From the NCBI GenBank assembly GCA_029261035.1, contig JAJDCD010000012.1, forward strand, positions 6,958-70,957: 64,000 nt of DNA. The letters run 5' to 3'. A program made the position numbers and the translations under genes. The stretch comes from Candidatus Omnitrophota bacterium (GTDB lineage Bacteria; Omnitrophota; Omnitrophia; Omnitrophales; JACROU01). The notes under the pieces were generated by a model. It did no database searches, was not told the DNA's origin, and worked only from the letters and a program-made list of their open reading frames with translations. This document shows positions 1,689-39,746 of this stretch, piece after piece (position 1 is the first letter of the stretch; every line of letters begins with the position of its first letter).

Positions 1689-1733
1689 TGTATTATACGT
1701 AGTATTGTTAACTTTTTAAAAGGAGGCGTCATC

Positions 1734-2171: not shown

Positions 2172-2198
2172 ATTGCCTCTGTTATAAAAAACATCTTT

Positions 2199-2235
2199 CC
2201 AGGGATATCTTCAGGTATCCCTGGGATAGTATTTT
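2199..2235 (+). terminator. hairpin after the pilin gene (terminator or attenuator before pilM)
   Basis: CCAGGGATA (2199-2207) pairs perfectly with TATCCCTGG (2216-2224) across an 8-nt loop. A partly T-rich stretch GATAGTATTTT follows. Confidence 0.5.
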
Positions 2236-2251
2236 AAAAGAAAGAGATGTT

Positions 2252-3304: not shown

Positions 3305-3311
3305 TAAAAAT

Positions 3312-4548: not shown

Positions 4549-4564
4549 TTAAAAGAGGTCTCGT

Positions 4565-4948: not shown

Positions 4949-4970
4949 TTTAAAAAACAAGGCCAATTAA

Positions 4971-16851: not shown

Positions 16852-16876
16852 GTCACAAATAATTAAGGGGAGTGTA

Positions 16877-18535: not shown

Positions 18536-18644
18536 TTCGGAAATAACGACAACTTAGAAGATCCATTCGAACGCCTAATCAGCCAAAAAGAAATGACAGA
18601 CCTCCAAGAAAAACACCCAAACAAAAACTATTGATTCTGACGTA

Positions 18645-18695
18645 CTGTGGTAATGCTGGATAATCTAAGCTCTAACTTATCCAATATTACCACAG
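18645..18695. repeat. 51-nt bipartite hairpin in the convergent intergenic region
   Basis: CTGTGGTAAT (18645-18654) pairs with ATTACCACAG (18686-18695). TGGATAA (18657-18663) pairs with TTATCCA (18677-18683). There is a 2x2 internal loop and a 13-nt apical loop. Confidence 0.6.
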
Positions 18696-18756
18696 CACTT
18701 GGACAACTCTAAAGAGTTGACCACAGACTCAACAGTACTACGACTATATTTTAGTT

Positions 18757-18826
18757 AAGAAAAGAAAAGCTTTGATTATGGGCCTAATTTAAATAGACAT
18801 AGGATTAAATGGACCATAATCAAAGC
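18757..18826 (-). terminator. putative terminator of the ykgJ-yqeY-yfcE-like unit
   Basis: A perfect 13-bp inverted repeat, GCTTTGATTATGG (18769-18781) with CCATAATCAAAGC (18814-18826). On the minus strand it is followed by TTTTCTTTTCTT. The 32-nt loop is large. Confidence 0.45.
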
Positions 18827-18958
18827 CATATTACAGGATTTATATAGCTATTTGAGGATAGAGGAAAAATAAGTATATAGTCCTATAATGTATCTTATGT
18901 TAACTTTACCATATAGTAAATGCATAAATAACGTAAAAACAGCCTTTAATACAAATCC

Positions 18959-19315
18959 CTAAACTTCATACTGCTTTTGAAGCTTTTTTAACCCTTCGCA
19001 ATAATCCAAGGAATCCTTAGTCCGCCAGGCAAACGGAAATTCTTTACACTGTTTTGGTTTAACTTCTTGAATCATGCATTGATTATCTTTCAAGAATATA
19101 CAACTATCATCTTCATTAGTTTTTAATGTTAATCGCGGTTTCATGATCAAATCGCAATAATGATCTAAGAAGAACTTATGATCTAAATTCAGATGTTTTG
19201 ATATGGTTTCAGACTCATCCAAACCTATGTAAACATAGCCTGGATTTCGACAACAATTACCACATTTCTGACACTCAAATTTATCAATATGCTTAAGGTA
19301 ACCGTACTTATCCAT
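18959..19315 (-). CDS. YkgJ-family cysteine-cluster protein
   Basis: CQKCGNCCRNPGYVYI plus downstream Cys residues, a CxxCxxCC pattern. Confidence 0.7.
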   Translation of the reverse strand: MDKYGYLKHIDKFECQKCGNCCRNPGYVYIGLDESETISKHLNLDHKFFLDHYCDLIMKPRLTLKTNEDDSCIFLKDNQCMIQEVKPKQCKEFPFAWRTKDSLDYCEGLKKLQKQYEV

Positions 19316-19761
19316 TAAGCCAATAAAGATGCTACGATCTGGTTAATAGCCTTTCCATCCGCTTTACCGCCAACTTCAGCCATAATCAGCTTCATAGCCT
19401 GTCCCATTTGAGCTTTAGTTTCTATATTATTGTCTTTTAGCACCTTTTCTACGATAGGTTTTAACTCATCATTAGACATTTGTTCCGGTTGATATACCTT
19501 TAAAATATCTAACTCATCTTGTTCTTTTTTAGCCAAGTCCTCACGGTTGGCCTTATTGTATTCTTCAATACTGTCTTTACGTTGTTTTATCTGCTTCACA
19601 ATCATTCTTAACACATCTTCATCTGAAGCTTTATCAAGCTTATTGTCAATAAGATGAGATTTTATTGCGGATTTCAACATTCTTAAGGTCTGTAATTTTA
19701 ATTCTGATTTAGCTTTCATTGCGTCGATCACATCTTTATTTATAAGTTCTTCTAATGTCAC
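19315..19761 (-). CDS. GatB/YqeY domain protein
   Basis: 148 aa. The N-terminus LEELINKDVIDAMKAKSELKLQTLRMLKSAIK and the C-terminal GGKADGKAINQIV are typical of YqeY. Confidence 0.85.
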   Translation of the reverse strand: MTLEELINKDVIDAMKAKSELKLQTLRMLKSAIKSHLIDNKLDKASDEDVLRMIVKQIKQRKDSIEEYNKANREDLAKKEQDELDILKVYQPEQMSNDELKPIVEKVLKDNNIETKAQMGQAMKLIMAEVGGKADGKAINQIVASLLA

Positions 19762-19782
19762 AGGATGCTCCTTTTGTTATAT

Positions 19783-20274
19783 TTAATAAACTTCTCCTAA
19801 TTCATGAATATCTGCATTACTTGTTTCTAAATCCAACAAAGCTACCGTTGGTTTTCCTGTATTCGTACCACAACCTTCGCCAGGATTAATAATTACAGCA
19901 CGGTTCATTTTCTCTATTCTTGGCTTATGCGTATTACCGCAAATGATGTAATCCACAACTTGACTTTCTTTATCCATATTAACCGTAGATTCATCGTGAA
20001 TAATGAGAAAAGATTTTTCTTCTAGAATTAAATAATACGGAGGTTCTTTGATAGATCCTCCAGAGATTTCACGGGGTCCCTTTGTCAAAGAATCCATATT
20101 ACCCAAAACAGCATAAAATAAAATTCCAGAATTAATAAATTCTTTAGCTGCTTCCTGTGTTGTAAAATCACCCGCATGAATAATTGCTTTCACATCATTC
20201 TTTTTGAAAAATTCTATCGCACTGTGTATTTCCAAAAATGCATCATGTGTGTCTGAGATAATTCCAATTTTCAT
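19783..20274 (-). CDS. YfcE/MJ0936-family metallophosphoesterase
   Basis: MKIGIISDTHD, HAGDF, GNMD and GNTHKP metal-binding motifs. Confidence 0.8.
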   Translation of the reverse strand: MKIGIISDTHDAFLEIHSAIEFFKKNDVKAIIHAGDFTTQEAAKEFINSGILFYAVLGNMDSLTKGPREISGGSIKEPPYYLILEEKSFLIIHDESTVNMDKESQVVDYIICGNTHKPRIEKMNRAVIINPGEGCGTNTGKPTVALLDLETSNADIHELGEVY

Positions 20275-23057: not shown

Positions 23058-23072
23058 TCTTTATCACCTGTT

Positions 23073-24053
23073 TTAAGGAAGCTTTAAAAGAATCGTACTT
23101 CCTAACAATATTTCCAAAATCAAAAGCAGAATCGCTGGCCACAATAAATAAGGAAAGAGCTCGTTATAATTTGCATACTCCTTAACCTTAACTTCTGTTT
23201 TTTCTAATTCATCAATCTTTTTATAGATCTGTTCTAAACTACGCTCATCTCTTGCTCTAAAAAAAACTCCTCCTGTCATATCTGCTATTTGTTTTAACAT
23301 CTTTTCATCAATATCTACTTTTGCTTGAACATAACGTCTTCCGAAAAGAGGATCGTCCACAGGAAAAGGAACAAGACCTCCCCTGCCAATTCCAATAGTA
23401 TATATTTTAATGCCAAAACCTTTGGCTAGCTCAGCCGCCGTAACGGGATCAATGTTTCCAGAATTATTTTCACCGTCGGTAATTAATATGACAACCTTAC
23501 TTTTAGCATCGCTTTCCCTCAATCTATTGATTGCATTAGCTATAGAAAGGCCCACAGCTGTGCCATCTTTGATCATCCCAATCTTAACTTCGTCCATTAA
23601 AGAAACTAAAACATCATAATCTAATGTTAAAGGACATTGAGTGTAGCTTTGCCTTGCAAAAACAACTAAACCAATACGGTCATTCTTCCTTCCTTTTACA
23701 AATTTCTTAGCTTCTTCCTTTGCTACATAAAGACGGTTTTCAGGGGCAAAATCTTCAGCCTGCATTGAACCCGAAACATCCAGAGCTATAACAATATCAA
23801 TACCTTTTGTACTTAATTCTTTTTCACTTTCAATGGCCTGAGGACGAGATAAAGCGAGCACAATTAAAATCAACGTAATTATCCTCAACATCGAAAGAGC
23901 TCTTATAGGGTTCTGAGAACCGGCAATTTTAATCTTCTTGATCTCATTCAGAGTCGGAAACCTCAAACTACTACTTTTCTTTCGTATCGAAATAAAGTAC
24001 AAGAAAGGCAAAACGATTAAAAATATTAAAAATAAAGGCGATTCAAAATGCAT
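23073..24053 (-). CDS. BatA-like VWA-domain membrane protein
   Basis: Two N-terminal TM helices. MIDAS DIVIALDVSGSM. ILITDGENNSG. C-terminal TM helix. Confidence 0.85.
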   Translation of the reverse strand: MHFESPLFLIFLIVLPFLYFISIRKKSSSLRFPTLNEIKKIKIAGSQNPIRALSMLRIITLILIVLALSRPQAIESEKELSTKGIDIVIALDVSGSMQAEDFAPENRLYVAKEEAKKFVKGRKNDRIGLVVFARQSYTQCPLTLDYDVLVSLMDEVKIGMIKDGTAVGLSIANAINRLRESDAKSKVVILITDGENNSGNIDPVTAAELAKGFGIKIYTIGIGRGGLVPFPVDDPLFGRRYVQAKVDIDEKMLKQIADMTGGVFFRARDERSLEQIYKKIDELEKTEVKVKEYANYNELFPYLLWPAILLLILEILLGSTILLKLP

Positions 24054-25036
24054 TATCCAATCTCCTTTTCATTAATAACTTTCATTTTTTCTTCCCCATC
24101 TTTTTCTAAAGGCTCAGCTTCTCTCTCATATGTGTTTTCAATGATTTTCCAGGCCATCTTAAAGTCTTTTTGTATTTCTTCTGTTTGAGGGGTGTGTTTT
24201 GCGTATTTAACCATTTCCAAGGAATTAAAATATTCCATAATTAAACGGACATCTTCCTCAGATAAATTTAATCTCTTTATAGATTTAAATATTTCTAATT
24301 TCGTTTCCTCGATAGCATTAAATTTATATCTTTTTGAGAGGTACAATTTAATCACTTCGGATAAACCATAGTAGTAAGCCTTATGTTCTCCTCTAACCAA
24401 CATCCCACTATCTTTTATTCGATTGAGTGACTGAAAGGCTGCTTCATGAATCTTTAAAGGGGGTGTCTTAAAACGATCTAGAAGGTGAGGGTTTTTCCTT
24501 AAGAAAAAGAAAAGAAATATAAGGAAGAGAAAAAAAACAGCTCCGAAAATTATAAAAAAGAACTTCCAAAATTGAGAAGGTATTTCTGTAACCCCTTTAA
24601 TCCCTCGTATATCCTTCTTAACGGCACCCTTTTTATCAATGGAATGTACCGTGATATATAGTTTATTTGTTTTAATCTCTTTTTCTTTTCCGTCAATATC
24701 CTTAAAGCGAAGAGTTATTGGATCGATTACGTATTCACCCAACGTATAACTTGTTATTTCATAAGTTTTACCTTCAATGACCTGAGCTCCTTCTTTTCGA
24801 GGGGTAATATCAAGGGAAGACTTTATTTCAAAATTTTTTAACTTTTTTTGATCTAAAGAACTTAAAATCTCAATTTGCGGGTTTCTTTTAATTTCAATTC
24901 GATATTCTACTTTATCTCCTACGGTAATAAATGCTTTATTCACCGAAGCTTTAACAGAAATATCACCCACATCTTGAGAGTAAATTAATGGAGTCATTAG
25001 GGAAAACAATATTAAAAATAAAATCGACCGTCTCAA
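24053..25036 (-). CDS. BatD-like membrane protein (signal peptide, beta-rich ectodomain, TM helix, helical tail)
   Basis: Architecture only: signal peptide MRRSILFLILFSLMTPLIYSQ, a TM helix FFFIIFGAVFFLFLIFLFFFL, then a basic stretch. It lies inside the Bat-type operon. Confidence 0.5.
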   Translation of the reverse strand: MRRSILFLILFSLMTPLIYSQDVGDISVKASVNKAFITVGDKVEYRIEIKRNPQIEILSSLDQKKLKNFEIKSSLDITPRKEGAQVIEGKTYEITSYTLGEYVIDPITLRFKDIDGKEKEIKTNKLYITVHSIDKKGAVKKDIRGIKGVTEIPSQFWKFFFIIFGAVFFLFLIFLFFFLRKNPHLLDRFKTPPLKIHEAAFQSLNRIKDSGMLVRGEHKAYYYGLSEVIKLYLSKRYKFNAIEETKLEIFKSIKRLNLSEEDVRLIMEYFNSLEMVKYAKHTPQTEEIQKDFKMAWKIIENTYEREAEPLEKDGEEKMKVINEKEIG

Positions 25037-25074
25037 ATTATATCCTCTTCCTCATATAAGCTAACTCTAACAAT

Positions 25075-25959
25075 CTACTGCCTTCTTTTGCGAGCGTCTC
25101 TTTCTTTGAAAAATTTCATCAATGGATCTACATAAGATTCAGTAATATCTATTTCTATCTTATCCAATCCCGTCTTCTTAAATAGCTCGTCTATTTGGTC
25201 TAGATTTGCTTGAGTTTTCATGCAAAATTGTTTTTGAAATTTTTTACTTTGTGTATTTACAATTACCTCATCCCCTGTCTCCAAATCCTCTAATGCGAGA
25301 TAACCTATCTTAGGAATATCTCTTTCTCTTGGATCAAAAAGATGGACCCCAATAATGTCATGCTCTTTCCCTAAAATTTTTAGAGGCTTTTCGTAGTTTG
25401 AGTCTATGAAATCTGAAATTAAAAAGATAACTGCTTTTCGGGTTAGCACCTTATGCATGTATTCCAACACCATAGAAAGATCGGTTTTGTTATACTTAGG
25501 TTCATATGAGAGAATTTCTCGGACTACACGCAAAGCATGTTTTCGACCCTTCTTAATAGGAATGTATTTCTCAACTTGATCTGTAAAAAATATAAGTCCC
25601 ACTTTGTCGTTATTCTTCACAGCTGAAAAAGCGAGAAGCGCTGTGATCTCTGCTGCTATTTCAGATTTAAGCTTTTCACCCGAACCAAAAAAACAAGAGT
25701 ATGAAGCGTCAACAACAAAAAAAACAGTAAGTTCCCGTTCTTCAACAAACTGTTTTATATAAGCAGTTTCACTTCGCGCTGTTACATTCCAATCAATAGA
25801 ACGGATATCATCGCCAGGGACATATTCTCTAACGTCTGAGAATTCAATCCCCTGCCCCTTAAAAACAGACTCATATTCTCCTCCAAACAAATCATTAACT
25901 AAACGATTTGTTTTTATTTCAATGAGTTTTACTTTGCTTAATAGTTCTTTTGGTAACAA
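25075..25959 (-). CDS. DUF58-family protein (MoxR-associated)
   Basis: Motif DDIRSIDWNVTARS and a VWA-like core FFVVDASYS. It lies downstream of the MoxR ATPase, as in Bat operons. Confidence 0.85.
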   Translation of the reverse strand: MLPKELLSKVKLIEIKTNRLVNDLFGGEYESVFKGQGIEFSDVREYVPGDDIRSIDWNVTARSETAYIKQFVEERELTVFFVVDASYSCFFGSGEKLKSEIAAEITALLAFSAVKNNDKVGLIFFTDQVEKYIPIKKGRKHALRVVREILSYEPKYNKTDLSMVLEYMHKVLTRKAVIFLISDFIDSNYEKPLKILGKEHDIIGVHLFDPRERDIPKIGYLALEDLETGDEVIVNTQSKKFQKQFCMKTQANLDQIDELFKKTGLDKIEIDITESYVDPLMKFFKERDARKRRQ

Positions 25960-26074
25960 TTTAAGCTCCTTAAGGGACTGTCACTCATCTCCATTCAAAA
26001 TTTTAGCAATTAAGTTCTTAAAGTAAATTAATTTATATTTTGCATCTTCACTTTTTTGGCCCTGCCCTTTACCT

Positions 26075-26211
26075 AGGGGACACGCACTTTTGCCACAATT
26101 GCTGTCGCAATGGTTACAAAAGTCCATGTCCCCAACTTCGAGCTGTGCTAATTTGGGGACATGGATTTTTGATACTGTTGCTTGCAACTGTGTCAAAAAT
26201 GCGTGTCCCCT
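26075..26211. repeat. 137-nt nested inverted repeat (long imperfect hairpin) in the MoxR-DUF58 gap
   Basis: The outer arms AGGGGACACGCA (26075-26086) and TGCGTGTCCCCT (26200-26211) are perfect. The inner arms TCCATGTCCCCAA (26123-26135) and TTGGGGACATGGA (26153-26165) are perfect. The segments between them are largely complementary. Confidence 0.8.
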
Positions 26212-26231
26212 TCCTCAATATTAACCTTCTA

Positions 26232-27233
26232 CTACGGAACTTCTATTTGGTCGAATATTTTCTTAACAATATCTTCGGAAGTCATGTCTTCAGCTTCCGC
26301 CTCATACGTAATTAGGATACGGTGTCTTAGCACGTCCAATCCAATTTGCTTCACGTCTTCAGGTGTAACATAAGCTCTTCCTTTTAGAAAAGCATGAGCC
26401 TTTGAAGCTTTCGTTAACATAATACTTGCCCGAGGAGACCCTCCAACTGAGATTAAATTCTTTAATTCTTCCAATTTATATAATTCTGGATTACGCGTAG
26501 CAAAAACAATATCCAGAATATAATCTTTTATTTTTTCATCGATATAAATATCATTAACCAAACCTCTTAATCGAAGAATGTCTTTAGGATTAATCACTGC
26601 ATTTACATCAATTTCATCGCTTTTAGTAACTTTTTCAAGAATTAATTTTTCTTCTCTTTTATTGGGATAAGTAACGTTAAGTTTAAGCATAAATCGATCT
26701 ACTTGAGCTTCAGGTAGCGGATAGGTCCCCTCTTGCTCAATTGGATTTTGAGTTGCCAAAACTAAAAAAGGTTCTTCAAGCTTATATGTATTTTCACCAA
26801 TAGTAACTTGTCTTTCTTGCATCGCTTCCAGCAAAGCACTTTGCACTTTTGATGGAGCACGGTTAATTTCGTCAGCCAGAATGATATTGGAAAAAATAGG
26901 TCCCTTTTTAGTCGTAAAATTACCGTCTTTTGGGTTATAGACAAGAGTACCAATTAAATCTGCCGGCAAAAGATCTGGCGTAAACTGAATTCTTTGAAAT
27001 TTAGTGTCGATGGCTTGAGCCAAGGTATGAACAGATTTTGTTTTAGCAAGGCCCGGAAGACCTTCAATCAACACATGACCATTTGCCAAGATGCTGATAA
27101 GAAGTCTTTCTATCAGATACTCCTGCCCCACAATCACTTTATGAATCTCAGTGATGAGAGCTTCCACCAATTTGTGTTCATTTTTTACTTTTTCTGTAAT
27201 TTCTTTTATTACTGCTTCCATGACTACCTCCAT
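26232..27233 (-). CDS. MoxR-family AAA+ ATPase
   Basis: Walker A GLPGLAKT, Walker B and sensor region ILADEINRAPSKVQSALLEAMQERQVT, and ATQNPIEQEGTYPLPEAQVDRF. Confidence 0.92.
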   Translation of the reverse strand: MEVVMEAVIKEITEKVKNEHKLVEALITEIHKVIVGQEYLIERLLISILANGHVLIEGLPGLAKTKSVHTLAQAIDTKFQRIQFTPDLLPADLIGTLVYNPKDGNFTTKKGPIFSNIILADEINRAPSKVQSALLEAMQERQVTIGENTYKLEEPFLVLATQNPIEQEGTYPLPEAQVDRFMLKLNVTYPNKREEKLILEKVTKSDEIDVNAVINPKDILRLRGLVNDIYIDEKIKDYILDIVFATRNPELYKLEELKNLISVGGSPRASIMLTKASKAHAFLKGRAYVTPEDVKQIGLDVLRHRILITYEAEAEDMTSEDIVKKIFDQIEVP

Positions 27234-27264
27234 ATTCTATAGTTATTACGAATGAAAATTCATT

Positions 27265-28164
27265 TTAGTTTCTTGGTTCAAACTCACCTTTGGGTTCGTT
27301 AACCAGTTTTGATTCAAAAAATCGTTCTGACAATCTTTTAACTTCAGTGCTTTGTGCATATGTTAATTTAGTTTGAGAGTACTTACAGGATTCTAATTTT
27401 AATATTATTTCTAATAAAATATTTTTATCTTCGTCTGTCAAAGATTCACAGGACTGTATGTTGTTTTCATCCAAAACAATTAACTGATAGGTGTCACTCA
27501 GATATTTACTTATTTTTTTGGACAACAATTCCATAAACTCTGAAAATTGTCCATCTTCAAGCAAGCTACCCAATCTATTAATTTCATTTAAAACCTCTTG
27601 CTCTATACTAGGTTTTGAATCTTCAATTATCTTCTTCTTTTTTTTCTGTTCTTTAATAAAAAAAACGAGCATCAAAAGAAAAACCACAATTCCAGCAGAG
27701 GTTATCCATTTCCAAGGAATAACTAAGGGTGGTTTTCTAATAGATACATTTTGACCTGGGACTTCAATTTGACTCATAGAGCTCTTCCCCGTCTCTATGT
27801 ATTGAATAGGAAAGGAAGGAATAGTCACTTTGCCAGCTCTTGCTGCAATAAGTGTGAAATTAAAAATTCTTCTTTGAATTAACCAACCATTTTCAGTTTG
27901 AGCAGATTCAGACGATACCCCTGTGTTTTCAATTGTAAAACCTTCTATTTCTAATACGGGTGGAATAAATTTGACCTGATCTTCATTTCCTAACCATTCG
28001 ATGGAAACCTCTAAAATAGCCTTAGAACCAATAGTTGGCTCTTCGTCTTGAAACGTTATACTCTTATTAATGGTTAAGGATATAGGAGAATCTTCTTGAG
28101 CATATAAAGCATTGGCGGGTAATACAAAAAGGACAAGAACTGTAAAAATATAAATCCATTTCAT
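27265..28164 (-). CDS. BatD-like membrane protein (first gene of the Bat-type operon)
   Basis: Signal peptide MKWIYIFTVLVLFVLPANALYA, a beta-rich ectodomain, a TM helix AGIVVFLLMLVFFI followed by KEQKKKKK, and a helical tail. The architecture matches 24053-25036. Confidence 0.5.
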   Translation of the reverse strand: MKWIYIFTVLVLFVLPANALYAQEDSPISLTINKSITFQDEEPTIGSKAILEVSIEWLGNEDQVKFIPPVLEIEGFTIENTGVSSESAQTENGWLIQRRIFNFTLIAARAGKVTIPSFPIQYIETGKSSMSQIEVPGQNVSIRKPPLVIPWKWITSAGIVVFLLMLVFFIKEQKKKKKIIEDSKPSIEQEVLNEINRLGSLLEDGQFSEFMELLSKKISKYLSDTYQLIVLDENNIQSCESLTDEDKNILLEIILKLESCKYSQTKLTYAQSTEVKRLSERFFESKLVNEPKGEFEPRN

Positions 28165-28482: not shown

Positions 28483-31400
28483 TTAGGCAGCTGCTTGAAT
28501 GGCTTTCCAAGCATTGATGTCAGCAAGTAATGTATCCCAAAGAGCGGCTCCACCTGCTAATTCAATACCGGTATATATCTTGGTATCAAATTGCTTACGA
28601 CTGAAGTCCAGAAGTTTCTTAGCAAGCAAGGTAGCTGTTAAGTTGTGTTGTGTTGTATCGCCAGAAGAGACTTTAGCTAATAACAGTCCTCTTTGAGCCG
28701 TTACATCTCCAACAACCTCTTCAACACCCACAAGACCTGTCGGAACTTTCTGCAATTTAATTGTTTCATTTAGACTACGATCGAGATTCTCTGGAGCAGA
28801 AACAATCACTAAGTTATCTGGATAGAGACCATATTCAGCAATAGCCAGATCTCGAACCTCCGTTTTTAAGGCTGCTATTCGTTCAGCATTACCAGAAAAC
28901 CACAAGGTCAACTTTAATGCTTTATCCATACCTGCAAGCAAGACAAGTTCTTGTAAATCAGTAGCCACTGTCTTGTCTGTCACTTCTCTATGCACAAACA
29001 AGGCTCGTGATGTACTTGTATTTGCATCTGGAAGTACATTAAAGATTCGCCCCAATTCCTGAGTTGCCGTTGGTGTTAAGCGAATAACATCCGCACTCAA
29101 GATCGTATTATCTGCGATTTGAGCCAACTCAGCTGGAAGAGCAATATCGAAAGAAGTTAATACTTGTTCTTGAAGTTCTCTTCCGTACTCTTCTAAGACC
29201 AATGGTAGAGTTAAATCTCTTGGTCCTGTAAAAATTGTTTTAAACTCAGGAGTAACAAAGCTTGCAACCTGAGCTCCTAAACTTTTTGCTGCTGTTTGAG
29301 CTTCAACAATTACTCTTGTTTTATCGAGTACCTTAGAAGCATTCTCGATTATAGCTTCAGTTGCTATTGGTGTAACCACTTCAAGAGGTGAACTATTTTG
29401 TCTTATAGATTCCCCCACAAGAAAACCAACACGTTCACCTATGGATTCAACAATACTTGGCATATCTAATCCAAGTATCGTCGTAAATACACCAGAAACA
29501 CCACCCCCATTAATAACGTAGTCTACAGCCCACAGAATACCTGTGTCGAATAATTGCGCAGATAATTGACGTGCTTTATTAGCAACAAATTGTTCATTTG
29601 CAGCACCTGCAACAATTTTAATTCCAGCTTCACTCAATCTTGCAATAGTATCCTGATCCAAAATATATTTAATTGCTGTTGGACTAAATACAGATGCCGG
29701 AACATCATAAATCTGATCTGATTTTGCAAGCAAAGCAACACTTCCATTCTCAAGACTACCAAAATTAAATGTTGAAACATCTGGAATTGTAGGAACGTTG
29801 GAATAAGTTTCTTTGACAATAGCATGTTGACTATCAAGTTCACTCATAACGACAATAGCTCCCTCTTCTATCAAAGCTTTAACTAAAGGAGTTCCAACAC
29901 CACCCTGTCCGCCTTGAACAGCTATTATTTTACCTTCAAGAGTTACATCTTCACCAAATACTTTTTGAATAGAAGCCTTAATCCCATTAAAAACACCTCT
30001 TGCTGTCCAAGGAGATGCATTATCACCCCCAAGAGCAAGATCTTTGTGCCCTACAACGTGACTTGGGGAAGTTTCCCCTATCGTCAACAATAAGGGTAAT
30101 GGTGTATTCATGTCTTGTCCCACAAATGTCACTGGTATATTCTCTAAAACTCTACCAAGACTGAGATATGCATCTCTTAATTTTCCTCTTTCAACCTGAG
30201 AAAGGTTCTCAATTTTTTTATTTGGATCAAGACCATCTACCTGAATCATTGTCTTTGACCCGCCTAAAGGTAATAAATCGAGACCAATCATGGCATTCTT
30301 ACTTGTCATAGCTCGAGATAAAGTCAAAGCTGAAATCATTTGAGCTTCTCTAGAATCCCATTTTAATCGGCGAACACCTCCAATAGCACCAGACATCAAC
30401 CATTGTTCTGTTCCATATTTCTTATAAGGAAGTAAATGATGTAAACCAATAATAGCTGTATAACCAACACTCTCATTTCTAGCAATAACAAGTCCCACAT
30501 GACCTTCCCAAACATCACTTACATGAGAAGGTAAACTAGAAGGATCTGTTATTCTGGTTACCTTTGTTCCATCATTTAATGTCAGACCTTCTTCAGGAAT
30601 CAAATTCTCAACCCATTGACGTCCTAGTATTTGCATTTCCTTGAATGCTCCATCCCCCAAAGAATTTGCTATAGCAGATTCTAATTTAGATTGTTCATCA
30701 ATAATAAACGAAGGAACATTTTTAAGCTTTCCTAGAAAATCTCTTCTACCAGAAACTTCTTGTTCCCAATAACCAGAATCAACTGTAGTTGTAATGCTTA
30801 AAAGATCTGATGGATCAATATCCACCCCATCAAAATGAACACTCCCCTTTTTAGGGACAAGACCAACAGAAGTTTCAGTATAGTTATCAGCTCCACTAGC
30901 TCTCTCTAACGCCCAAAGAATAACTCGAAAGTTTTCCATAAACCCAGGCCAAATATAACTACCATCTTCGTTTTGTCTAAACCAATTAACATGAAAGAAA
31001 GCTGGAGCTTGCTCTCCAAGAGAACCAATCACTCTTAATTTATTTTCCATATCTGCTGCTTCTGTTTGAGAAAAGAAAGGACGATTTGCAAAAGGATCTC
31101 TTTTCATAACACCTTCTTCTCCAGCTGCTGCTGCTGTACCCATAACACCCATAACAGCACCATCATAGATACCTGATTCTATCGTAGGAAGCTGACGTAC
31201 TAAAAGTTCTCCTTCAGGAATACGACCACCCCAGAAGATTGCGCTAATACGAACACCCTTAGGATCTCTCCAGTGTTCTGACATGATTTCATCTTGAACA
31301 CGTTCTGCAGATGCTGCATAGCGTGCATTTGGATGAGCCCATTCTCTTGGCTCTAGCTTTTTGGACACTTTATTCTTTTGAAGTCGTTCTCCAGAAGACC

Positions 31401-34400
31401 AGTCAGCAATCTTTTCTCCGGTCCAATCTTCCCAACCTTCTAGATCTGGAGTTCCAACTTTAAGGGTTTCAGACCCTTCTATATATGTTTCTTCTCCAAA
31501 TGCCCATGCTTTGTAATGAGCTTTACTTTTAAATCCTGGAGGGAATTTGGTTTTATCTGTCCACCATACTTCATTTGTAATTGTGTTAATTGCAACATTG
31601 GTAAATATTGTCCCCGTGTTTGGACCAATGGCTACCATTGCTTTTGGTGTTTGCTCCGCATTCGTACCTTTTGCAACACCAAAATAACCATTCTCAGCAT
31701 TGGTTGCATAAAGCCCTTCACCTTCACGAGCACGTGCGAAAATAATGTCATCACTGACAACACGAACTTCGTACTTACCTTTAAGAGCATCTGGAACTTC
31801 GATCATAGCAAAATTCGTTTTCCCAGAAGCACTTGGCGCTGCATATGCTACATAATCAAGTTTTCCTGTTTCAAGATTCTTGATTTCAACCACAGCCATA
31901 TGCTCTGCTAACCAACCTTCTTTAATTGCACTCCAAGTTGCATAACGAAGTGCATGAAACTTTTTGTTTAATAGAGCATTCCCACCATAATTAGAGCCGT
32001 AAGACATAATCAACATTTCATCAGGAAAAATACCGTAATTCCTTAAATCGACACCATCTTCAGCTTCTTCAATAAACTCTTTTCTAGCATCGCCTTCAAG
32101 ACCCAACTCATTCGCTTCTTGTGTTGCTTTCTCATTCGCTTCTGCAATAAGAGAGTATATTTTATCTATATCACCAGGTTCATGAACACCACGAACAAAT
32201 TTTTCTTCATCACCTAGTTCTGCCAGAGCTACATTACCTACCTTAGCAAGTCTGAACATATTTAAAGCCACATATCGACTTGATGTTACCTGAACACCCA
32301 CCTGAGAAAGGTCAGAGCCAGCAGTTCCCATTAGATATGGAAGAACATACATTGTTTTGCCAGCCATAGAACCTTTTAACAGACCTTCCATAACTTCTTT
32401 CTTTTCTGCTGTTGGACTCCAGTTGTTATAGTGCCCTGCATCCTCTGGGTTTTCTGTTGCGACAAACGTCTTTTTAACAGAACGCGCCGTATCTTTTTTA
32501 TGAGAACGTGTGTAATAGTTACCATCTGCGAGTTTTGTTAATTCTCCTGCGGCAACAGCTTGCTCAAGTAAAGCAGCGTCATCTGATTCGTCTACAATCT
32601 GAATATCCGCAGCCCCTGTAAACTCAACCATTTCACGAATCCAGCTTTGCAACGCAACATTAGATAAAGTTGAAATCTTATCTTCAATTGCTGCACCTAA
32701 ACTAGAAGCTTCTGTTGTTGTTTGAGTCCAATCGTATACGCTCAAAGGAAAAGTATCATAAACAAAGTCATGAGCCTCCAAAGCTTTCTGAGCTAAAGTC
32801 AATCGACTTATATTTTGAATTGTTGCTTTTTCTGATACTTTCGCTTTGGCATTACTAAGTTTTTTAGTAACATTTTCACGAGAATCAAAAATTGCATCCA
32901 ACAAAGCATCTCTCTCAGAAGCATTCGATTCAATTACAGCTAGCAGCACACGCGAACCATAAGTAATCCATTCATCGTGAGTCAATTTTCTTTTTAATAT
33001 TTCCATAATGACAGGAGATTTGCTTTTATCAAAAGCCCCACCTGGATTATCATTAAAGTATTCAGTTACCGTCAAATCTCTTTCTTGTAACATTTCAAGA
33101 ATAAGTTCTTTAGTAACTTTTTCGCCATTTTTAACTTCTCTACCATCATGAAGAATTTGTCCACCTTCATCCAACTCGATACCATGAATTTCTAACAACT
33201 TAACCCAATGCCAGAAAATTTCATAAGTAGCAAAGTCGTTCATTAAACGTTTACCTGTAAATACGTGTTTACCCGCATCATTGGTAAGACGTTCTTTTTC
33301 CGTTTTATAATCATCAACAGCGGCTGCATTATTTCCATTCAACTGTTGGAACCCATACTCTGAAGCCATAAAAATTGCATAACGAATTCCATCTAGTGTT
33401 ACTTTACCAGTTGGAGTTGTGAATATTTTCGCATAAGCTTCTTCAGAGAATAACTCATCTAAATCTTTTTGAGTAACGATATAAGGAGTAATTCCTCCTG
33501 CATCAGAAACAAGTCCTAAGTTAATGAATTTTTGTCTTTCTTCTACAGATAAACCATCTACTAAAGCTTGCAAGTCTTCTCTAGTTGCTTGTAACGGTTT
33601 AGCGCCTGCCTCTACATATTTCGTGGATACAGTAGCAACCCAACTTTGACGATAGGCATCAAACTCAACTCCATCTATAACAAGAAGACCTGTTAATCGT
33701 TCACGGAGTTTATCTAAAAACATTGCTTGAACAGCACCGTCATTAGTAGCTTTCTTAGCCGCAGCAATCTCTTCCGTGTCTGTTGCTTTAATTGGAGTTT
33801 CCATTACAGCAGACATTCCACCGATCGGCATACCATTCTCCAGAGCACCCGTTTCACGATTTCCTGTTACTAGTACTGTAATTAAAGCATTCCTACGCGT
33901 GTATTCCGTCATAGAGGCTTCTGTCATACCAACGCTATTAGGATCAGGAAATACTTTTGAAGGGTCATCTTTAACCATCTCAAAACGCCCATTAATATAA
34001 TCCCAACGACCTACATTAGGTCCAATTAAGTTTTCTCTTAAAATCCAAAGAATTACTTCTTGCTGAGCAGCATAAGTCCCTCTTTCATTCAACATTTCTA
34101 TTTTTATAGAACCCCTTTCAAGACCTAGAGTTTCTTCAAATCGCTTAAGAATCTTAGAAATAATCAAAGCTTCTTCAGGAGATTCAATTTTAGGGACATA
34201 AAAGTAAACATTACTCTCATTTTCTTTTTGAGCATCATAGTTATTCAATAAATGGATTGTAAATGCTGCAATCGTCGCAGGAATATTTCTACCATCTAAA
34301 GTAATTTGTCTGTTTTTTAGATGAAGCCCAGGAACACGATGAAAAATGGTTGGCCATTGATCACGATCCACTTTGATACTATATTCTTTAGGTTCACCTT

Positions 34401-37400
34401 CTTTATTTTTCTTTGTAGGATGTTTGAACGCACGTCCTATCCAGGTACCCGATATCACTTCCTTAATATAAGTCCATGCTTGATAGAGTTTTTGTTGATA
34501 GTCATTACCCGCGTCCTCCCAGTCAAACATCCAAGACACAGCGCCTTTTAACCCTGCGTTAATAGCTCCCATCAACATACCCATATCATCGGCTGGCCCC
34601 GTTCCTTGCAGACCGGCTTTTAGAACTTCTGCTGGGACTGGCACTGTTGAGTTCATAACCCAACGATACTGAGAGTCTTTATTTATTAAACCTTCACGAA
34701 TTTGTTCAACCGTTAAAGTGTTTCCATCCGCGTCGGTCAATTCTTTTGAAGGGTCCGCAAAACCATAACCTTCACCCGAATCTCGTCGAGCTTTTCTAGC
34801 GTGTAGTTGCTTTCCAATTTCTAAACCAAATTCACGCGTCAACGATTCAATCGTTCCTTCTACATTTACCGTTCTGCCATTTACTTCTTTATCACCGAAA
34901 AGACCTGAAAAATCTTCAGCCAAATCTTCGCGAACTACAAGCCCTTCTGTTGTGGTATTTACATCAACATCAGATTTAGCAGAAAGATTAAATTGATTAG
35001 ATGTATCAACATCATTACCTTTTTCTCTTGAAGAGGCTGTTCCATTTGCTATTCTGTTAATAGATGCTAATTGAGCACCTCTCACTTCAGCACCTGCAGA
35101 ATTTTGATGTCTATTGGTGAAAGGAGATCCTATTTTCTGACCCACCTGCTGAACCATAGACACAAATGCATAAGCACCCACTTTAACTAATTCTCTCATT
35201 ACTCGATAAACGTTTAAATGAGCAACATGATCTTGAAAAATGGTTACGAATTGGAATGCAAAACCTTGCTTACCCATATCCGTACTAAAAGTTCTTAAAG
35301 CATCAACCATCGCCTGAACATCTTCAGGGTTGTCACCCCATGTATCCGGTTGACCCCAATCAAAATCTTTTGATTGCATTGCTTTTTTAATATTAGCTCT
35401 TTGCTCTAAGCTCAAAGCAGCATGCCAGTTATCAGGGTTATTCCAGTTAAAAGATGGAGATAAATTCACTGCCTTAAGTGGTTTAAAACCTAACTCTGGA
35501 TCATTGTCTACAATATCAGCAAACGCTTTTGCATTTTTTAAATCGGGTTCTTTTTGTTCCATCCACAAAATATCTGCTGCACGAGCTGCCATTCTCAAAC
35601 GGATCCCTGCATTTGTAACACCCAACGAGTTATCAATTTGAAAAAAACCTTCACTTGTTTGAGCTAACGTGTGATCCCAATAAATTTCAATATTAAAACT
35701 ATTTATTGCTAACTCTCTTAAATCCTGAAAATCCAAAGTAATCTCTAAAGGATTAGTAGCTTCGTTCCATGCCTCGACTTCACCGCTACGGCCAGCTTCC
35801 ACCAAAGCTCTTTCAACAGCTTGAGGATAAGTCATAACATCTGCTTCTTGAGCCCAAACATTAGTCAACCTAGAAGATGCCGCAACCTCCTCTTCCCAGC
35901 CGGAGACTTCCGCATCTAAGACTTCTTGAATTGTCCACTCTTTACCAGAAGCATCAACAACAACGTTATTTAAACGCACTCTAAAGTTCGGATCTTCTAG
36001 CTCAATAGCAAGTCTATTCGACCAAAGTTCATCCACATAAACAGGGTTTCCACCATACTTTGGAGTCAAACTTTCATTATGCTCTAAAAGCCTCTCTTTT
36101 TCTTCTCCTCTAATATTCCAAACCTCTCTAATAGAAGCCGCAATTTTGGGAAAATTAGCTTCGATTTCCGAAAGCCTAACTTCAGGGTCAACACCTCTGT
36201 TATATTCTTTTTTATGAGATAAACGAATCACATCTTTTAAAGAAGGTATTCCTTCAACTGTAGCACCTTTAATAAAGTAATGATCTTCAGCTGAATTATC
36301 ATCTTCAAGTAACTTTGCTCCTTCAGCATCACTGCGTGCAATAATTACCAAAGTTGAGCTTCGACGAATGGCTTCATAACGAATATCCCATAGACGCTTC
36401 ATAAACTCACCTAAAGAAGTCAACACTTTACCAGCCATATGACCACATTTTTTTTGTCCATGTGCTTGGTCTTCAATATGAATCGATGCTGATTTTGCAG
36501 CAATAAACAAAGAAGCTAATTGAGTCGGAGATTTATGAGCAGTATCTCCATCAGCGTAAATAGGAATTAATGCATTTAATAAAACATCATTCAAATTTTC
36601 AAGAACTCCAGCCACTGCTTTCTCTCTATTTGCCTTTAAGTTGTCACTAGAAAAGCCTACATAATTTTCTCGATTACTAATTAATTCAGAAATAAAGCCA
36701 TCCCCTAATTCTGTAGCAAAGTTTTCAAAATCTTCTCTAACTTCTATTGTAAATATATACTGTCTTGCTCTAACAGAATCGACAAACGAGCGAATCAATG
36801 CTGGCTTCATTTGCTCTAAAGATGCTTTGTTAGGAGCCCTTCTTAATATTTGGAATAAATTGGGAAAGAACTTTTTAGTTAGATCTCTAGACAAAGTTCT
36901 GAATTGATATTGTAAGTTTTTGTCCAAGTTAACTAAACCCGTGTAAATTTCTTTAACTTCATTTGGAACACTATCCAATTGGTACTGAGCTAAATCTGGC
37001 TCCCCCATATGATGCGATGTTTGCCAACCACTTAAATACAAAGCTTCTGCCCCTGCCTCAACAGCTGCTTTAGCTGTTACAGAATCCATCACACCACCGG
37101 TCGCTGCAAAAGTACCTTGCTCCGCATGCTTCATAACAAGATAATACAAAGAATCTGCTAATGCATTAGCTGTTTCTGGCACATCTAAAACGCTCCCTGC
37201 CAATCTGTGAAACTCTTCAGCAGTCCATTTCTTATCCTCTCTCATAAATTTAGCAATTCGACTAAATCGATCTTGAGCTAAGAATTTTTTAAAATGTGCT
37301 ACTGTGGGTTCAATTCTTTTAGCCTCTGGCAAAGCACCCAAACTATTGGCAGATACATTAACCACTTCATTAAAAACTGGAAATTCCGCCAACAGATCCT

Positions 37401-39195
37401 GCCCCTCAACAGAAAGTTGAATTCCAACTCTGTTATTCCAGGAAGAAAATTGTTTTCCCCAAGGACTTTCGTTAAGCGTAGTCTGAAGCCCTAAAATATC
37501 CCCAGCTTCTATAACTCCGCTACCAACCAAAGCTCTTCTAGCAGAAATGATGAATTCAGGAGCAACACCACCAAAGTAATCAACACCTAAAGCAACCAAT
37601 GCTTCTACAGAAGTTCCTCCAAAGAAAGGTGTTTCAATTGTTGAGTCCTTTAAACCATGGCTACTTGTCTTAAGGAATGAATGAACGTAAGTTTCTTGCC
37701 CTTCAACAGAATCAATTTGAGGAGCAATTAAAGAATAGTTCGATTTGTCTTCATAATAATTCTTAAAAGATTCAGAGTGAAACCCCCCTGTAATAATGGC
37801 TACATTCTTAGCTCTTCTAGATTCAATTAAAGAAGTAGCTTTATCAAACATACCTGAATCACGCTGAATAGCACCTTCGTAAAATTGCACCGATTTCCCG
37901 AATAGAGCTTTCACTTCTTCTAAATTCTCAATTTGTGTTTTCTTGACACGAGACAATGTATTGATTTCATGAATAATTCGACTAGGGTCTAAAGTGTTTC
38001 CTTTAGACTTCAATGCCTTATAGTCTTTTGGTGTTAACTGTAGCTCAAATAACCGGCTCAATAGTTCAAAGTTTAAAATCAGTTCCAACACCCTCTTCTG
38101 TTCTTTAGACTCTGTTAATTTATCTAAGATCTGAGCATTTAACTTCTCAGATTCATTAAACAACCTATCTCCAACCAACTCATTTTTCAAAAGAAAGTTT
38201 CCAACAAAAAATGAAACATTAGGATATACATCAAAATTAAAATTTGCTGGCAATTTCCTAACCACAGATTCCATCAACAGCGCAAGAGCACCCTCAGCAT
38301 CAGAATCAACAGAGTTAAAAAATGCTTTCAACTGTTTGTGCTCTTTAGCAGAAACAGTTTTGCGTGCAAGTTTTAAAAAAGCATTTTTTTCTTTGTGAAA
38401 CTGTTCTAAATTAAATTGATCTTGAAACTTTTGGAGTTTAAAAACTCTAAAAAGCATTGGCCAATCCAATTGCTGACCCGGTTGATCAAAATCAATATTT
38501 AAGATTTGATTCGCTTGTTTTTTTAAATTTTCTAATCTCTGAATAAATGTGATTTTCTTCTGGTCAAAGTCTTTTTTGTTTTTTAAACTAAGTCGAATAT
38601 CTGCATTCAACAAAGAAGACTTGAGGCCTTCTACCTTAGCTTTTATATTGGATAAAAACAAACTCGTCTTCTCTCTTTGAGATAATACAGCTACAAAGTC
38701 TTTTGAGTTACTCATATAAGATGCTTCATCTTCTATACCATAAGCTTTAACTTTAGGATTATTCATTAAGAATAATTCTGCTCCCTTAAGATAAGCTTTG
38801 CGAGTTAAATCATCTGCAATTTGTGCGTTGATTTTTTTATCACGAACAAACTGAAGCAGTTCAGGTTCTAACTCCGAAACGGAGCCTTCTAAAAGAAGTA
38901 AGTCTATTTTTTTGTTTTGATTTAAATAATTAAGAATGGATTCTATATTTTTTTGGGCTTGATAATTACCATGAGCTGTTTGAATATGAAATACATTTGT
39001 TTCATGTATTTTGGGTGTTTGATGCTGAATAACACCAAGCTCACGAGGTAATGTAAAATTTGAATTGTTAAGTGATACGGATGAAACTGTATTTAATTGC
39101 GTTAAACCTTGCGAATATCCAGTCCCTGAGAAAATAAAAGTTAATGCAACGAACAAGTTTATTGCCTTTAATCTAGCGAAGTAATTAAGAAACAT
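28483..39195 (-). CDS. giant multi-enzyme fusion protein: leader + TraB/GumN-like domain + isocitrate lyase + malate synthase + GTP-PEP carboxykinase + ELFV-type dehydrogenase + unknown C-terminal domain
   Basis: Uninterrupted 3,570-codon ORF in an AT-rich genome. AAGGAG lies 9 nt upstream of the ATG (39193-39195). Hallmark motifs of four enzyme families occur in series (see the domain entries). Confidence 0.9.
   Translation of the reverse strand: [3570 protein letters not shown]
28486..29274 (-). other. domain (aa ~3308-3570): C-terminal region of unknown function
   Basis: About 260 aa of non-low-complexity sequence after the dehydrogenase module. I recognised no motif. Confidence 0.5.
29311..30618 (-). 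other. domain (aa ~2860-3295): Glu/Leu/Phe/Val-dehydrogenase-like NAD(P) oxidoreductase
   Basis: [21 protein letters not shown] (Lys2981), [16 protein letters not shown], Rossmann motif [12 protein letters not shown] (aa 3090-3101), VAGAANEQ and [10 protein letters not shown]. The classical ELFV signature is only partly matched. Confidence 0.7.
30691..32667 (-). other. domain (aa ~2177-2835): GTP-dependent phosphoenolpyruvate carboxykinase
   Basis: [47 protein letters not shown], P-loop APSASGKTN (Lys2459), [20 protein letters not shown], and [25 protein letters not shown] (aa 2734-2758). Confidence 0.9.
32971..34878 (-). other. domain (aa ~1440-2075): malate synthase (A-type-like)
   Basis: FDWEDAG (aa 1557-1563), [32 protein letters not shown] (aa 1725-1733), and [13 protein letters not shown], where Asp1987 sits at the position of the catalytic base. 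Confidence 0.85.
35011..37278 (-). other. domain (aa ~640-1395): isocitrate lyase, long form with insertions
   Basis: YLSGWQ (aa 720-725), IYADGDTAH, the ICL signature KKCGHMAGK (aa 915-923, nt 36427-36453), [38 protein letters not shown] and [10 protein letters not shown] (aa 1362-1371). Confidence 0.9.
37711..39018 (-). other. domain (aa ~60-495): TraB/GumN/ChaN (Tiki-superfamily)-like, tentative
   Basis: [37 protein letters not shown] (TAH aa 73-75, Glu103) resembles the GTxH...E motif of this superfamily. [33 protein letters not shown]...YSLIAP (GGFH aa 470-473) resembles its C-terminal R-[ND]-x2-[MW]...VGxxH motif. This rests on pattern recall only. Confidence 0.35.
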
Positions 39196-39689
39196 ATGAT
39201 GAATCTCCTTTTCGAGGATTATTTTTTTGAAAGCAAAACAAGTTTGCTAGGGTATTTCTTTTGCTAAATTTAAATACATGTTTTGAAAGAACAAAACGAT
39301 AATTACGTTTTCCGCAATCCGTTGATTTTTTTCGAATTCATCCGTGAAGAGAGATCAAAATATAATAGAATTTCAGATAAAAGTCAATTTAATGTTGAAT
39401 GAAAAGAAAAAAAAATAATTAAAAAAGTAGTGTTAAAAACATTTAAGAATTTACTTTTCGATTCATTTCTCTCTTATTTTGAATATTGCTAAATTATTTA
39501 CATTAAAAAAATACTTATTAAATTTATTTATAATATTATTTATTAAGCTGATTTTAAAATACTTACATCATCCCCTATTATTTATAAGGAAGAAGTTCAA
39601 TAATTGATTGTAAAAATAGCATATCTATCATGAATATTAATTATAATAATAGAGGTAATTCAATATAGGATATATTTCTTAGGCAGGAA

Positions 39690-39726
39690 TAAAAAAATAA
39701 GGGAGCAGTGCAATAACCGCTCCCTT
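39690..39726 (-). terminator. Rho-independent terminator of dnaK
   Basis: The minus strand reads AAGGGAGC-GGTTATTGCACT-GCTCCCTT followed by ATTTTTTTT. It starts 21 nt after the dnaK stop. Confidence 0.8.
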
Positions 39727-39746
39727 ACCTTAAGCATTACTTAATA

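Follow-up and report, generated by a model that had tools for sequence, protein, structure and literature searches.

A very large Omnitrophota protein family with a signal-peptide-like leader, a TIKI-like head and multi-enzyme cargo: candidate exported and cleavable polyproteins

Introduction

How could a chain of central-metabolism enzymes, which require coenzyme A (CoA) thioesters (acetyl-CoA), GTP, NAD(P) or ATP, come to begin with what looks like an export signal? The question is raised by a stretch of 64,000 nucleotides from a Candidatus Omnitrophota bacterium (assembly GCA_029261035.1, contig JAJDCD010000012.1, positions 6,958 to 70,957), hereafter called the window. A single open reading frame (ORF) of 3,570 codons occupies positions 28483-39195 of its minus strand, stop codon included. 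Its translation contains, in order, a leader, an N-terminal domain resembling the TIKI superfamily (N-domain), isocitrate lyase (ICL), malate synthase, a GTP-dependent phosphoenolpyruvate carboxykinase (PEPCK), a dehydrogenase of the ELFV type and a C-terminal module. Pfam places ICL at about amino acids (aa) 640-1500, the TIM barrel of malate synthase at aa 1616-1819, GTP-PEPCK at aa 2185-2839 (PEPCK_GTP, 306 bits) and the ELFV-type dehydrogenase at aa 2937-3234.

We propose that this protein is an exported, cleavable polyprotein made up of a signal peptide, a TIKI-like head, cargo and a conserved tail; this composite is the best explanation that we have, and we give it a probability of roughly 0.55. 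Directly supported parts of it are the features seen in the sequence and how well they are conserved, the assignment of the fold, the architecture of the family, the junction motifs and the exclusion of cysteine.

Results

The N-terminal module (N-module) of the polyprotein is the signature of a very large Omnitrophota protein family and not a peculiarity of one gene, and the features of its leader and domain are not due to chance. In an exhaustive phmmer/HMMER scan of 1.84 billion cluster representatives, the N-module matched 5,579 representatives at E<=1e-3 and 640 at E<=1e-30; the first figure counts clusters at 50% identity and is a lower bound, so that the family has at least 5,579 of them. 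The best 150 of the 5,579 matched proteins range from 388 to 7,823 aa, and the match begins within the first ~75 residues in nearly all of them; it starts as late as residue ~350 in a few, and some are fragments truncated at the N-terminus. A word-indexed search of 5.8 billion proteins with aa 1-640 had returned no homologue, a result that was an artefact of sensitivity and not evidence of orphan status, because the exhaustive scan found 5,579 relatives. Named members are proteins from metagenome-assembled genomes of Candidatus Omnitrophota, and their annotations name the cargo domain that happened to be identified, such as isocitrate lyase, 6-phosphofructokinase or Glu/Leu/Phe/Val dehydrogenase.

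The same picture was obtained at the DNA level. A degenerate pattern, back-translated from H-[ILV]-Q-x-A-H-G-x-[YF]-x2-[QE]-x21-E-G and run on the species genomes of GTDB, hit at least 118 loci, several per genome, and a hidden Markov model of the N-domain (built from the alignment A1) matched an ORF in all 118 loci listed. Their titles name Omnitrophota or Omnitrophica, in one case 'Elusimicrobia', and in many cases 'uncultured bacterium'. The window itself holds one copy of the N-module. Stand-alone N-domain proteins able to act in trans were sought among the matches, and nearly all of the short ones look truncated.

The leader of the window protein (aa 1-28; 39112..39195, minus strand) has an n-region with R8 and K10, an apolar core from A11 to F22 and the c-region SGTGYS, with a predicted cleavage site of the signal peptidase I (SPase I) type between GYS and QG. 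This is the layout of a Sec/SPase-I signal by sequence criteria: a charged n-region, an apolar h-region of 7-15 residues and a polar c-region in which positions -3 and -1 are small. The initial annotation had described the basic R8 and K10, a hydrophobic core and the small-residue site GYS-QG; the N-terminus reads as quoted there, and these hallmarks are kept throughout the family. The core had been put at about 17 residues, however, and its uninterrupted stretch is shorter, 12-15 residues, with Kyte-Doolittle maxima of 2.44 over 11 residues and 1.44 over 19 residues, the latter under the usual threshold for a transmembrane segment.

Among 117 full-length homologues, the n-region has a mean length of 9.6 aa and a net charge of +2.8, and the apolar core is most often 13 residues long. 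In the 20 residues past the core, Lys and Arg together make up 3.6%, against 12.7% overall, with 16% Ala and 12% Pro. The printed N-termini of the first 70 of the best 150 proteins show an n-region rich in Lys and Arg and an apolar core usually closed by Gln, Asn or Pro; where the N-terminus is intact, the short segment after the core closes in virtually all of them with a site of the AxA type, such as AWA, AFA or AYA. A signal-peptide heuristic was passed by 114 of 146 family members, as opposed to 7 among the 43 remaining window ORFs; this heuristic is crude, and the seven ORFs that pass include the secretin and Bat proteins. Judged by these sequence traits, the leader of the window protein is probably a signal peptide of the Sec/SPase-I kind and not a membrane anchor.

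Other classes of leader were considered and rejected. The window leader has no RR pair as in the twin-arginine motif S/T-R-R-x-F-L-K, and no more than 4 of the 117 family leaders show a pattern of the RR type, which excludes a Tat leader; a lipoprotein leader for signal peptidase II is excluded, the sole cysteine of the window protein being C917; and a prepilin-type leader was ruled out on sequence. The leaders of P0004 to P0070 (numbered members of the family) are unusually conserved over the first ~35 aa, with a 13-residue core and recurrent Thr and Phe, as in LTALLTVLFFxxTQ. Such conservation hints at a recognition that may be more specific than that of the general Sec machinery. Past residue 60, segments with a 19-residue hydropathy of at least 1.6 occur in 89 of the 150 family proteins (279 segments), and parts of the cargo in some members may span a membrane; no such segment is present in the window protein (maximum 1.53, aa 532).

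The second trait of the family is its near-absence of cysteine. Over its 3,570 aa, the window protein contains just one cysteine, C917, which is the catalytic Cys of the intact ICL motif KKCGH. The 48 other ORFs of the window contain 0.69% Cys, so that the deficit of the polyprotein has a binomial P of 5e-10. Its orthologue P0002 has two cysteines, one in the leader and the other being that of ICL, and the 150 family proteins together have 0.07% Cys over 415,666 residues. Neighbouring genes were taken as the control, since the comparison with stand-alone PEPCKs was uninformative: the nearest of these, which are actinobacterial, are themselves cysteine-poor (0.18%). In the genome loci, the window and two related loci, 117 polyprotein ORFs contain 0.10% Cys, as opposed to 1.11% for ORFs without a leader, 0.78% for membrane proteins and 0.84% for other leader-bearing ORFs. 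The depletion, which is about ten-fold, is thus specific to the polyprotein family and is not general to exported proteins of Omnitrophota. Ordinary Sec export alone therefore does not explain it, and no explanation so far fully accounts for a cysteine exclusion specific to this family.

The N-domain spans aa ~46-512 (37660..39060, minus strand) and consists of an alpha/beta core with a helical insertion of ~300 aa (aa ~157-460). The TraB/GumN/ChaN-like motifs noticed in the initial annotation are present at aa 69-104 and aa 445-491 as stated, and the domain is real, although it does not end at aa 495 as supposed: the AlphaFold model runs to aa ~512. Three segments stand out. The motif HIQTAHGN (aa 70-77; 38965..38988, minus strand) contains H75, the counterpart of the first catalytic His of TIKI enzymes. 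The strand and glutamate LLLLEG (aa 99-104; 38884..38901, minus strand) place E103 28 residues past H75. In RDSGM...AIITGGFH (aa 445-473; 37777..37863, minus strand), the conserved R445 lies 28 residues ahead of the conserved H473. In the alignment of 35 sequences, H70, Q72, A74, H75, E103, G104, E140, R445, G470, G471, F472 and H473, among others, are conserved at 90% or more, and E155 and Y160 are invariant; the three candidate catalytic residues whose conservation had been called for earlier, H75, E103 and H473, are thus all conserved at that level.

Prediction from the single sequence gave a local confidence score (pLDDT) of 35, and AlphaFold with the alignment gave a predicted template-modelling score (pTM) of 0.71, with pLDDT above 90 across most of aa ~50-510. 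The model has a helix at aa 2-25 and disorder at aa 26-44 and beyond aa 514. Its core is a six-stranded alpha/beta structure (strands 54-60, 67-73, 99-102, 150-153, 464-470 and 486-492) with the central parallel beta-sheet and flanking helices of the TIKI fold. The His-Glu pair H75/E103 follows strands 67-73 and 99-102, and the second histidine, H473, stands in G-G-F-H after strand 464-470 with the basic residue R445 upstream, as is found in TIKI enzymes. In RRSP, the catalytic 2His/2Glu set is E3900, H3902, E3930 and H4030, complemented by the conserved Arg-4001; the pair of Bcr135 is His85-Glu113, and PMT, HopBA1, Bcr135 and ChaN are TIKI-superfamily relatives of RRSP (PMC6254334). The H75-E103 spacing of 28 equals that of H85-E113 in Bcr135 and of H3902-E3930 in RRSP, and the R445-H473 spacing of 28 compares with 29 for R4001-H4030 of RRSP.

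Databases of defined families do not cover this domain. Pfam gave no match to the first 630 residues of the window protein even at E<=10, NCBIfam has no model for the N-domain, and the curated TIKI families (PF04187, PF01963, Ere) gave no significant sequence-profile match. Sub-threshold matches to ChaN (PF04187) were seen in 3 of 35 members, the best with E 0.006. The structures named alongside the model are the Ere-like 'succinoglycan biosynthesis proteins' 2rad and 2qgm, TraB (8bqs_DQ), RRSP (5w6l), EreC (6xcq) and ChaN (2g5g). The TraB/GumN/ChaN relationship suggested at the outset is therefore borne out by the fold, the motifs, their spacings and the sub-threshold ChaN matches, but not by a significant profile or Foldseek match. 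Sequence and model together support membership of the N-domain in the TIKI superfamily at the level of fold and motifs only, outside any defined family; it would represent a new family of the superfamily, and one that is very probably catalytic.

Downstream of the N-domain, a linker (aa 513-615; 37351..37659, minus strand), modelled with low confidence by AlphaFold and probably disordered, leads to the first of four short motifs. These are A-N-S-L-G-A at the boundary of N-domain and ICL (aa 616-621; 37333..37350), A-S-S-L-G-A between malate synthase and PEPCK (aa 2163-2168; 32692..32709), A-N-S-L-G-D between PEPCK and the ELFV-type dehydrogenase (aa 2843-2848; 30652..30669) and A-K-S-L-G-A between the dehydrogenase and the C-terminal module (aa 3303-3308; 29272..29289), all on the minus strand. 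The pattern [AS]-x-S-L-G occurs four times in the window protein against 0.25 expected, and only 2 of 20,000 shuffles reach four. All four A-x-S-L-G sites lie at domain boundaries, and, judged by eye, recognisable enzyme sequence starts again within a few tens of residues of each. The orthologue P0002 also has four, one of them between ICL and malate synthase. The corresponding linker of the window protein (aa ~1400-1430; ~34900-35000, minus strand) is without the motif and reads NQFNLSAKS, against NQFKGAAAHSLGTA in P0002. In the window organism, ICL and malate synthase may remain fused after processing, because the motif has been lost from the linker that joins them.

The A-x-S-L-G (ASLG) type is limited to a small clade comprising the window, the genome that encodes P0002 and P0151, and genome JACROU01, where it occurs at locus L010 and at locus L065 on the contig of P0003. 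Most other members have the junction motif R-S-E-[LVAM]-R (RSE type). RSE occurs 816 times in the family against 141 expected (5.8-fold), with R at +4 in 84%; the first copy stands at aa ~570-650, right after the N-domain, and a protein may have up to 26. The sequence that follows the N-domain in the 118 loci listed amounts to 77,171 residues and contains 183 copies of the RSE-type motif. The motifs of P0008 flank PGI and abut the end of FBPase, and P0099 has the variant R-P-E-A-R; 'QNSHA' of P0041 was considered as another junction motif and rejected, being a tandem repeat. Cargo elsewhere in the family includes PGI, FBPase, CofD, GT2, methyltransferases, HEAT repeats, PHP, ELFV dehydrogenase and histidine kinase/PAS domains, and much of it matches nothing. 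The linker after the N-domain is disordered in the AlphaFold model, and a short conserved motif within variable, disordered linkers is difficult to account for if nothing recognises it; the obvious reading would be cleavage. From the placement of these motifs, we consider it probable that the chains are cut there.

The window protein ends in a conserved tail (28486..28620, minus strand) with the sequence ...AWKAIQAAA. An [A/S/M]-A end preceding the terminal carboxyl group, after a loosely conserved helical segment, is found in 100 of the 150 family proteins (AA in 50, SA in 37, MA in 10), and those without it mostly look truncated. This -[A/S]-A end could be a C-terminal recognition signal or a degron. 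Ends of the RSA and KSA type resemble the upstream half of the RSExR junction.

The orthologue locus is syntenic with the window over trpD, trpC, a histidine kinase, a sigma-54 regulator, dnaK, the polyprotein gene and the Bat/MoxR operon. Between dnaK and the polyprotein gene, it has an extra gene for a protein of 1,165 aa (L002:6234-9731, plus strand; GCA_973787085.1, contig CCZJPZ010000003.1). This protein consists of a leader, an N-domain (HIQDAHG...LEGG...VTGGFH), an F-A-A-S-L-G-G junction and AceK. The locus looks like an aceBAK-type unit for the glyoxylate shunt of the cell itself, and yet every part has an export-type head. A remnant of aceK was sought in the 551-bp spacer of the window between dnaK and the polyprotein gene (39196-39746; AT-rich, 23.6% G+C) and none was found; a terminator-like hairpin follows the upstream dnaK within this spacer.

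With a reading frame of this length, it has to be asked whether the ORF or its N-terminus could stem from misassembly, read-through of separate genes or a wrong start. Nothing was found in favour of such an artefact beyond the somewhat lower G+C content of the N-terminal 640 codons (0.339 vs 0.37-0.41 in the remainder of the ORF). Against it, the G+C content at third codon positions is even along the whole ORF, and a Shine-Dalgarno sequence, AAGGAG (39205..39210, minus strand), lies 9 nucleotides upstream of the ATG at 39195, which supports the annotated start and hence the leader. Moreover, the architecture recurs in the orthologue on six independent contigs (JGI, NCBI, Logan) with conserved synteny, and in thousands of relatives. 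An artefact is thus effectively refuted.

Two gene clusters of the window are mentioned for completeness. Immediately downstream of the polyprotein gene, positions 20331-28164 (minus strand) hold an operon of the Bat/MoxR type, encoding a BatD-like protein, a MoxR AAA+ ATPase, a DUF58 protein, BatA/VWA and VWA-TPR proteins, an arrangement that is also kept at the orthologue locus. About 33 kb from the polyprotein, positions 181-6407 (plus strand) hold a cluster resembling type IV pilus and type II secretion systems, with a sigma-54 response regulator, a pilin with an N-methylation motif, PilM, a PilO-like protein and a secretin; the secretin has 478 aa, a signal peptide and no cysteine. Secretion and pilus genes have been noted close to giant Omnitrophota genes in the literature. 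The GC skew flips sign at ~17-19 kb (window 16000-20000), where the genes switch from the plus to the minus strand.

Discussion

According to the explanation proposed here, the leader would bring the nascent chain to the translocon and then be removed, and the pre-protein would pass Sec unfolded. The linkers would be cut at the junction motifs, freeing the individual enzymes, and the TIKI-like domain is the prime candidate for the peptidase making these cuts. Export, cleavage of the junctions and the identity of the protease are the parts of this explanation that we infer. Proteins that have to pass unfolded through an additional membrane, for instance autotransporter passengers and type I substrates, typically exclude cysteine, and to our knowledge there is no reason for a cytoplasmic polyprotein to purge this residue. 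Cysteine exclusion has been described as an adaptation of exported proteins (PMC2823432). The balance of the sequence evidence leans towards real export of the polyprotein, because the leader has its hallmarks and cysteine is nearly absent specifically from this family. The suggestion of export in the initial annotation thus keeps its support from the leader and gains that of cysteine exclusion, although neither export itself nor the host-directed role suggested with it is established.

Several observations weigh against this explanation as a whole. The cofactor needs of the cargo conflict with export, other leader-bearing ORFs of Omnitrophota are not poor in cysteine (0.84%), the genes adjoining the polyprotein are ordinary housekeeping genes, and no dedicated secretion partner was found among the adjacent genes examined. 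In the relative, AceK follows the leader, N-domain and ASLG junction in one chain, and isocitrate dehydrogenase, the only substrate that AceK is known to have, is cytoplasmic. With regard to the N-domain, a sequence-profile search of the PDB found nothing, and Foldseek of the model against the PDB gave no significant match (best E 0.23, the top matches being Ere proteins). At the position that corresponds, by motif register and not by structural superposition, to the first Glu of RRSP (E3900), the N-domain has Gln72, conserved at 90% or more, and it has an extra conserved His70. Among TIKI members, ChaN and PMT are not enzymes, and the Ere proteins are esterases. Finally, the N-domains of the AceK fusion and of P0151, from one genome, are only 27% identical, yet both proteins are of the ASLG type, and the N-domain of P0151 is 45% identical to that of P0004, an RSE-type protein from elsewhere. 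This pattern suggests that junction type tracks the genome and not the lineage of the N-domain.

The localisation points are taken up by the alternative that the N-terminus tethers the protein to the membrane, or plays no part in translocation, and that the polyprotein stays in the cytoplasm and serves the glyoxylate shunt and gluconeogenesis of its own cell, with fusion and processing serving stoichiometric co-expression only. This would fit the cytoplasmic cofactors needed by the cargo, the intact catalytic motifs and strong Pfam scores (KKCGH in ICL, 306 bits for PEPCK_GTP), the aceBAK-like position of aceK directly upstream in the relative, where AceK has the same module, and the housekeeping nature of the flanking genes; the authors of work on giant Omnitrophota proteins also doubted extracellular predictions for glycolytic domains. 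Conversely, the placement of charge N-terminal to the core, a core of ~13 residues that is too short for a transmembrane helix and the early mature region poor in Lys and Arg are those of a classical cleaved Sec signal, by the positive-inside rule even an uncleaved anchor would leave the body of the protein outside, and a ten-fold cysteine depletion specific to the family is left unexplained. On balance, we regard retention in the cytoplasm of the producer as unlikely. A bolder reading is that Omnitrophota export whole sets of enzymes and regulators of central metabolism (ICL, malate synthase, PEPCK and dehydrogenase in the window protein; AceK, PGI and FBPase in relatives) as cysteine-free polyproteins, which the TIKI-like head would cut at the clade-specific junctions. 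The products would act outside the producer cytoplasm, be it as 'metabolic effectors' within a host or prey cell or in a compartment beyond the cytoplasm to which nucleotides and CoA are supplied. AceK, for instance, might shut down the isocitrate dehydrogenase of a host, and ICL, malate synthase and PEPCK might divert carbon to C4 acids and phosphoenolpyruvate. Omnitrophota are ultra-small and thought to be host-dependent. Still, we hold this reading to be rather improbable.

Within the explanation that we prefer, export of a cleavable polyprotein, the cutting enzyme is a separate matter. The TIKI-like head is the first candidate because it is the sole module heading every match examined, it keeps an active site of the hydrolase type, and endopeptidases with the TIKI fold are known (Tiki, RRSP; PMC6254334). 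The C-terminal end, by comparison, is found in about two thirds of the proteins, the others looking truncated; a scan of members revealed no further domain that resembles a protease, and H75, E103, R445 and H473 are strongly conserved, as expected of an active hydrolase. The rival view is that the N-domain is a TIKI-fold esterase, a ligand- or haem-binding module or a targeting or anchoring module, and that the junctions, and perhaps the -[A/S]-A end, are recognised by an enzyme or machine encoded once per genome, which would fit either localisation. The non-enzymatic and esterase members of the superfamily and Gln72 at the position of a catalytic Glu of RRSP favour this view, as does the agreement of junction type with genome in spite of 27% identity in the same-genome pair and 45% between P0151 and P0004. 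Since junction type tracks the genome, one recognition factor per genome, or N-domains that act promiscuously in trans, would be simpler than private cleavage in cis. The proposal that the N-domain is the processing activity, put forward with the first reading of this sequence, is thus not established and is weakened in its simple cis form; we retain the N-domain only tentatively as the junction protease, at somewhat less than even odds, and judge the view that it is not the protease to be possible and less probable still.

Even a conservative reading leaves a large, unmodelled family of the TIKI superfamily, candidate cleavage motifs and a signature of cysteine exclusion. If the signals mean what they usually mean, a whole phylum sends cofactor-dependent housekeeping enzymes through Sec as processable polyproteins. 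Metabolic reconstructions of Omnitrophota would then need to be reread, for an enzyme counted as 'present' may not be cytoplasmic. There would also be a molecular handle on the suspected parasitic or predatory lifestyle of these bacteria, and a polyprotein strategy would be added to bacterial cell biology.

Comparison with known systems

In outline, MARTX toxins have the organisation proposed here from sequence: a giant secreted precursor, several enzymatic cargo domains that fold independently and release by cleavage in inter-domain linkers. They even carry a TIKI-fold domain, RRSP (PMC6254334), although it is cargo there and the TIKI-like domain of the polyprotein is its head. MARTX toxins have RTX repeats, leave the cell by type I secretion and contain an internal cysteine protease domain, whereas Pfam found no RTX repeats, type I secretion signal or cysteine protease domain in the window polyprotein, which has no spare cysteine for the latter. 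Their cargo is made up of toxins, and that of the polyprotein of central-metabolism enzymes. The resemblance is functional only.

Giant proteins of Omnitrophota have been described before (West-Roberts et al. 2023 preprint; Seymour et al. 2023; a 2026 complete-genome preprint). Most have predicted signal peptides or transmembrane helices, and some have sugar-metabolism enzyme domains that are, puzzlingly, predicted to be extracellular; post-translational cleavage was proposed. The authors considered an error of topology prediction possible for the extracellular glycolytic domains, and in the 2026 preprint, DeepTMHMM placed multi-enzyme content outside the inner membrane. The giants of those studies have at least 10-30 thousand aa, with C39/S8 peptidase, adhesin and glycosidase content, whereas the best 150 proteins of the TIKI-headed family have 388-7,823 aa. 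Term searches of these three papers and of the wider literature found no description of the head domain, no account of such proteins as polyproteins and no link of Omnitrophota to Tiki or TraB; the junction motifs, the C-terminal end and the cysteine exclusion were outside that search, and a prior description is possible.

ICL and malate synthase are also joined in one chain in bifunctional proteins such as the nematode glyoxylate-cycle protein, and the position of aceK directly upstream of the polyprotein gene in the relative recalls the aceBAK operon. Those systems are cytoplasmic or peroxisomal and are not known to have a leader, a TIKI domain or further cargo.

The closest comparison for the head is the TIKI superfamily itself, which includes the Wnt proteases Tiki1/2, TraB/PrgY, GumN, ChaN, the erythromycin esterases EreA-C/Bcr135, RRSP, HopBA1 and the C1-C2 domains of PMT, and many of whose members are extracytoplasmic or delivered into other cells. 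The N-domain shares with it the alpha/beta core with a parallel sheet, a His after the first core strand and a Glu after the next, 28 residues apart, and an Arg ~28 residues before a second His, which follows a strand and stands in G-G-F-H. As the Ere enzymes have a helical lid between their two halves, the N-domain has a helical insertion. It differs from the superfamily in the length of that insertion, ~300 residues, in the extra His70 and in Gln72 where RRSP and Ere have Glu, and it is distinguished by its position, always N-terminal on multi-kiloresidue, multi-enzyme proteins.

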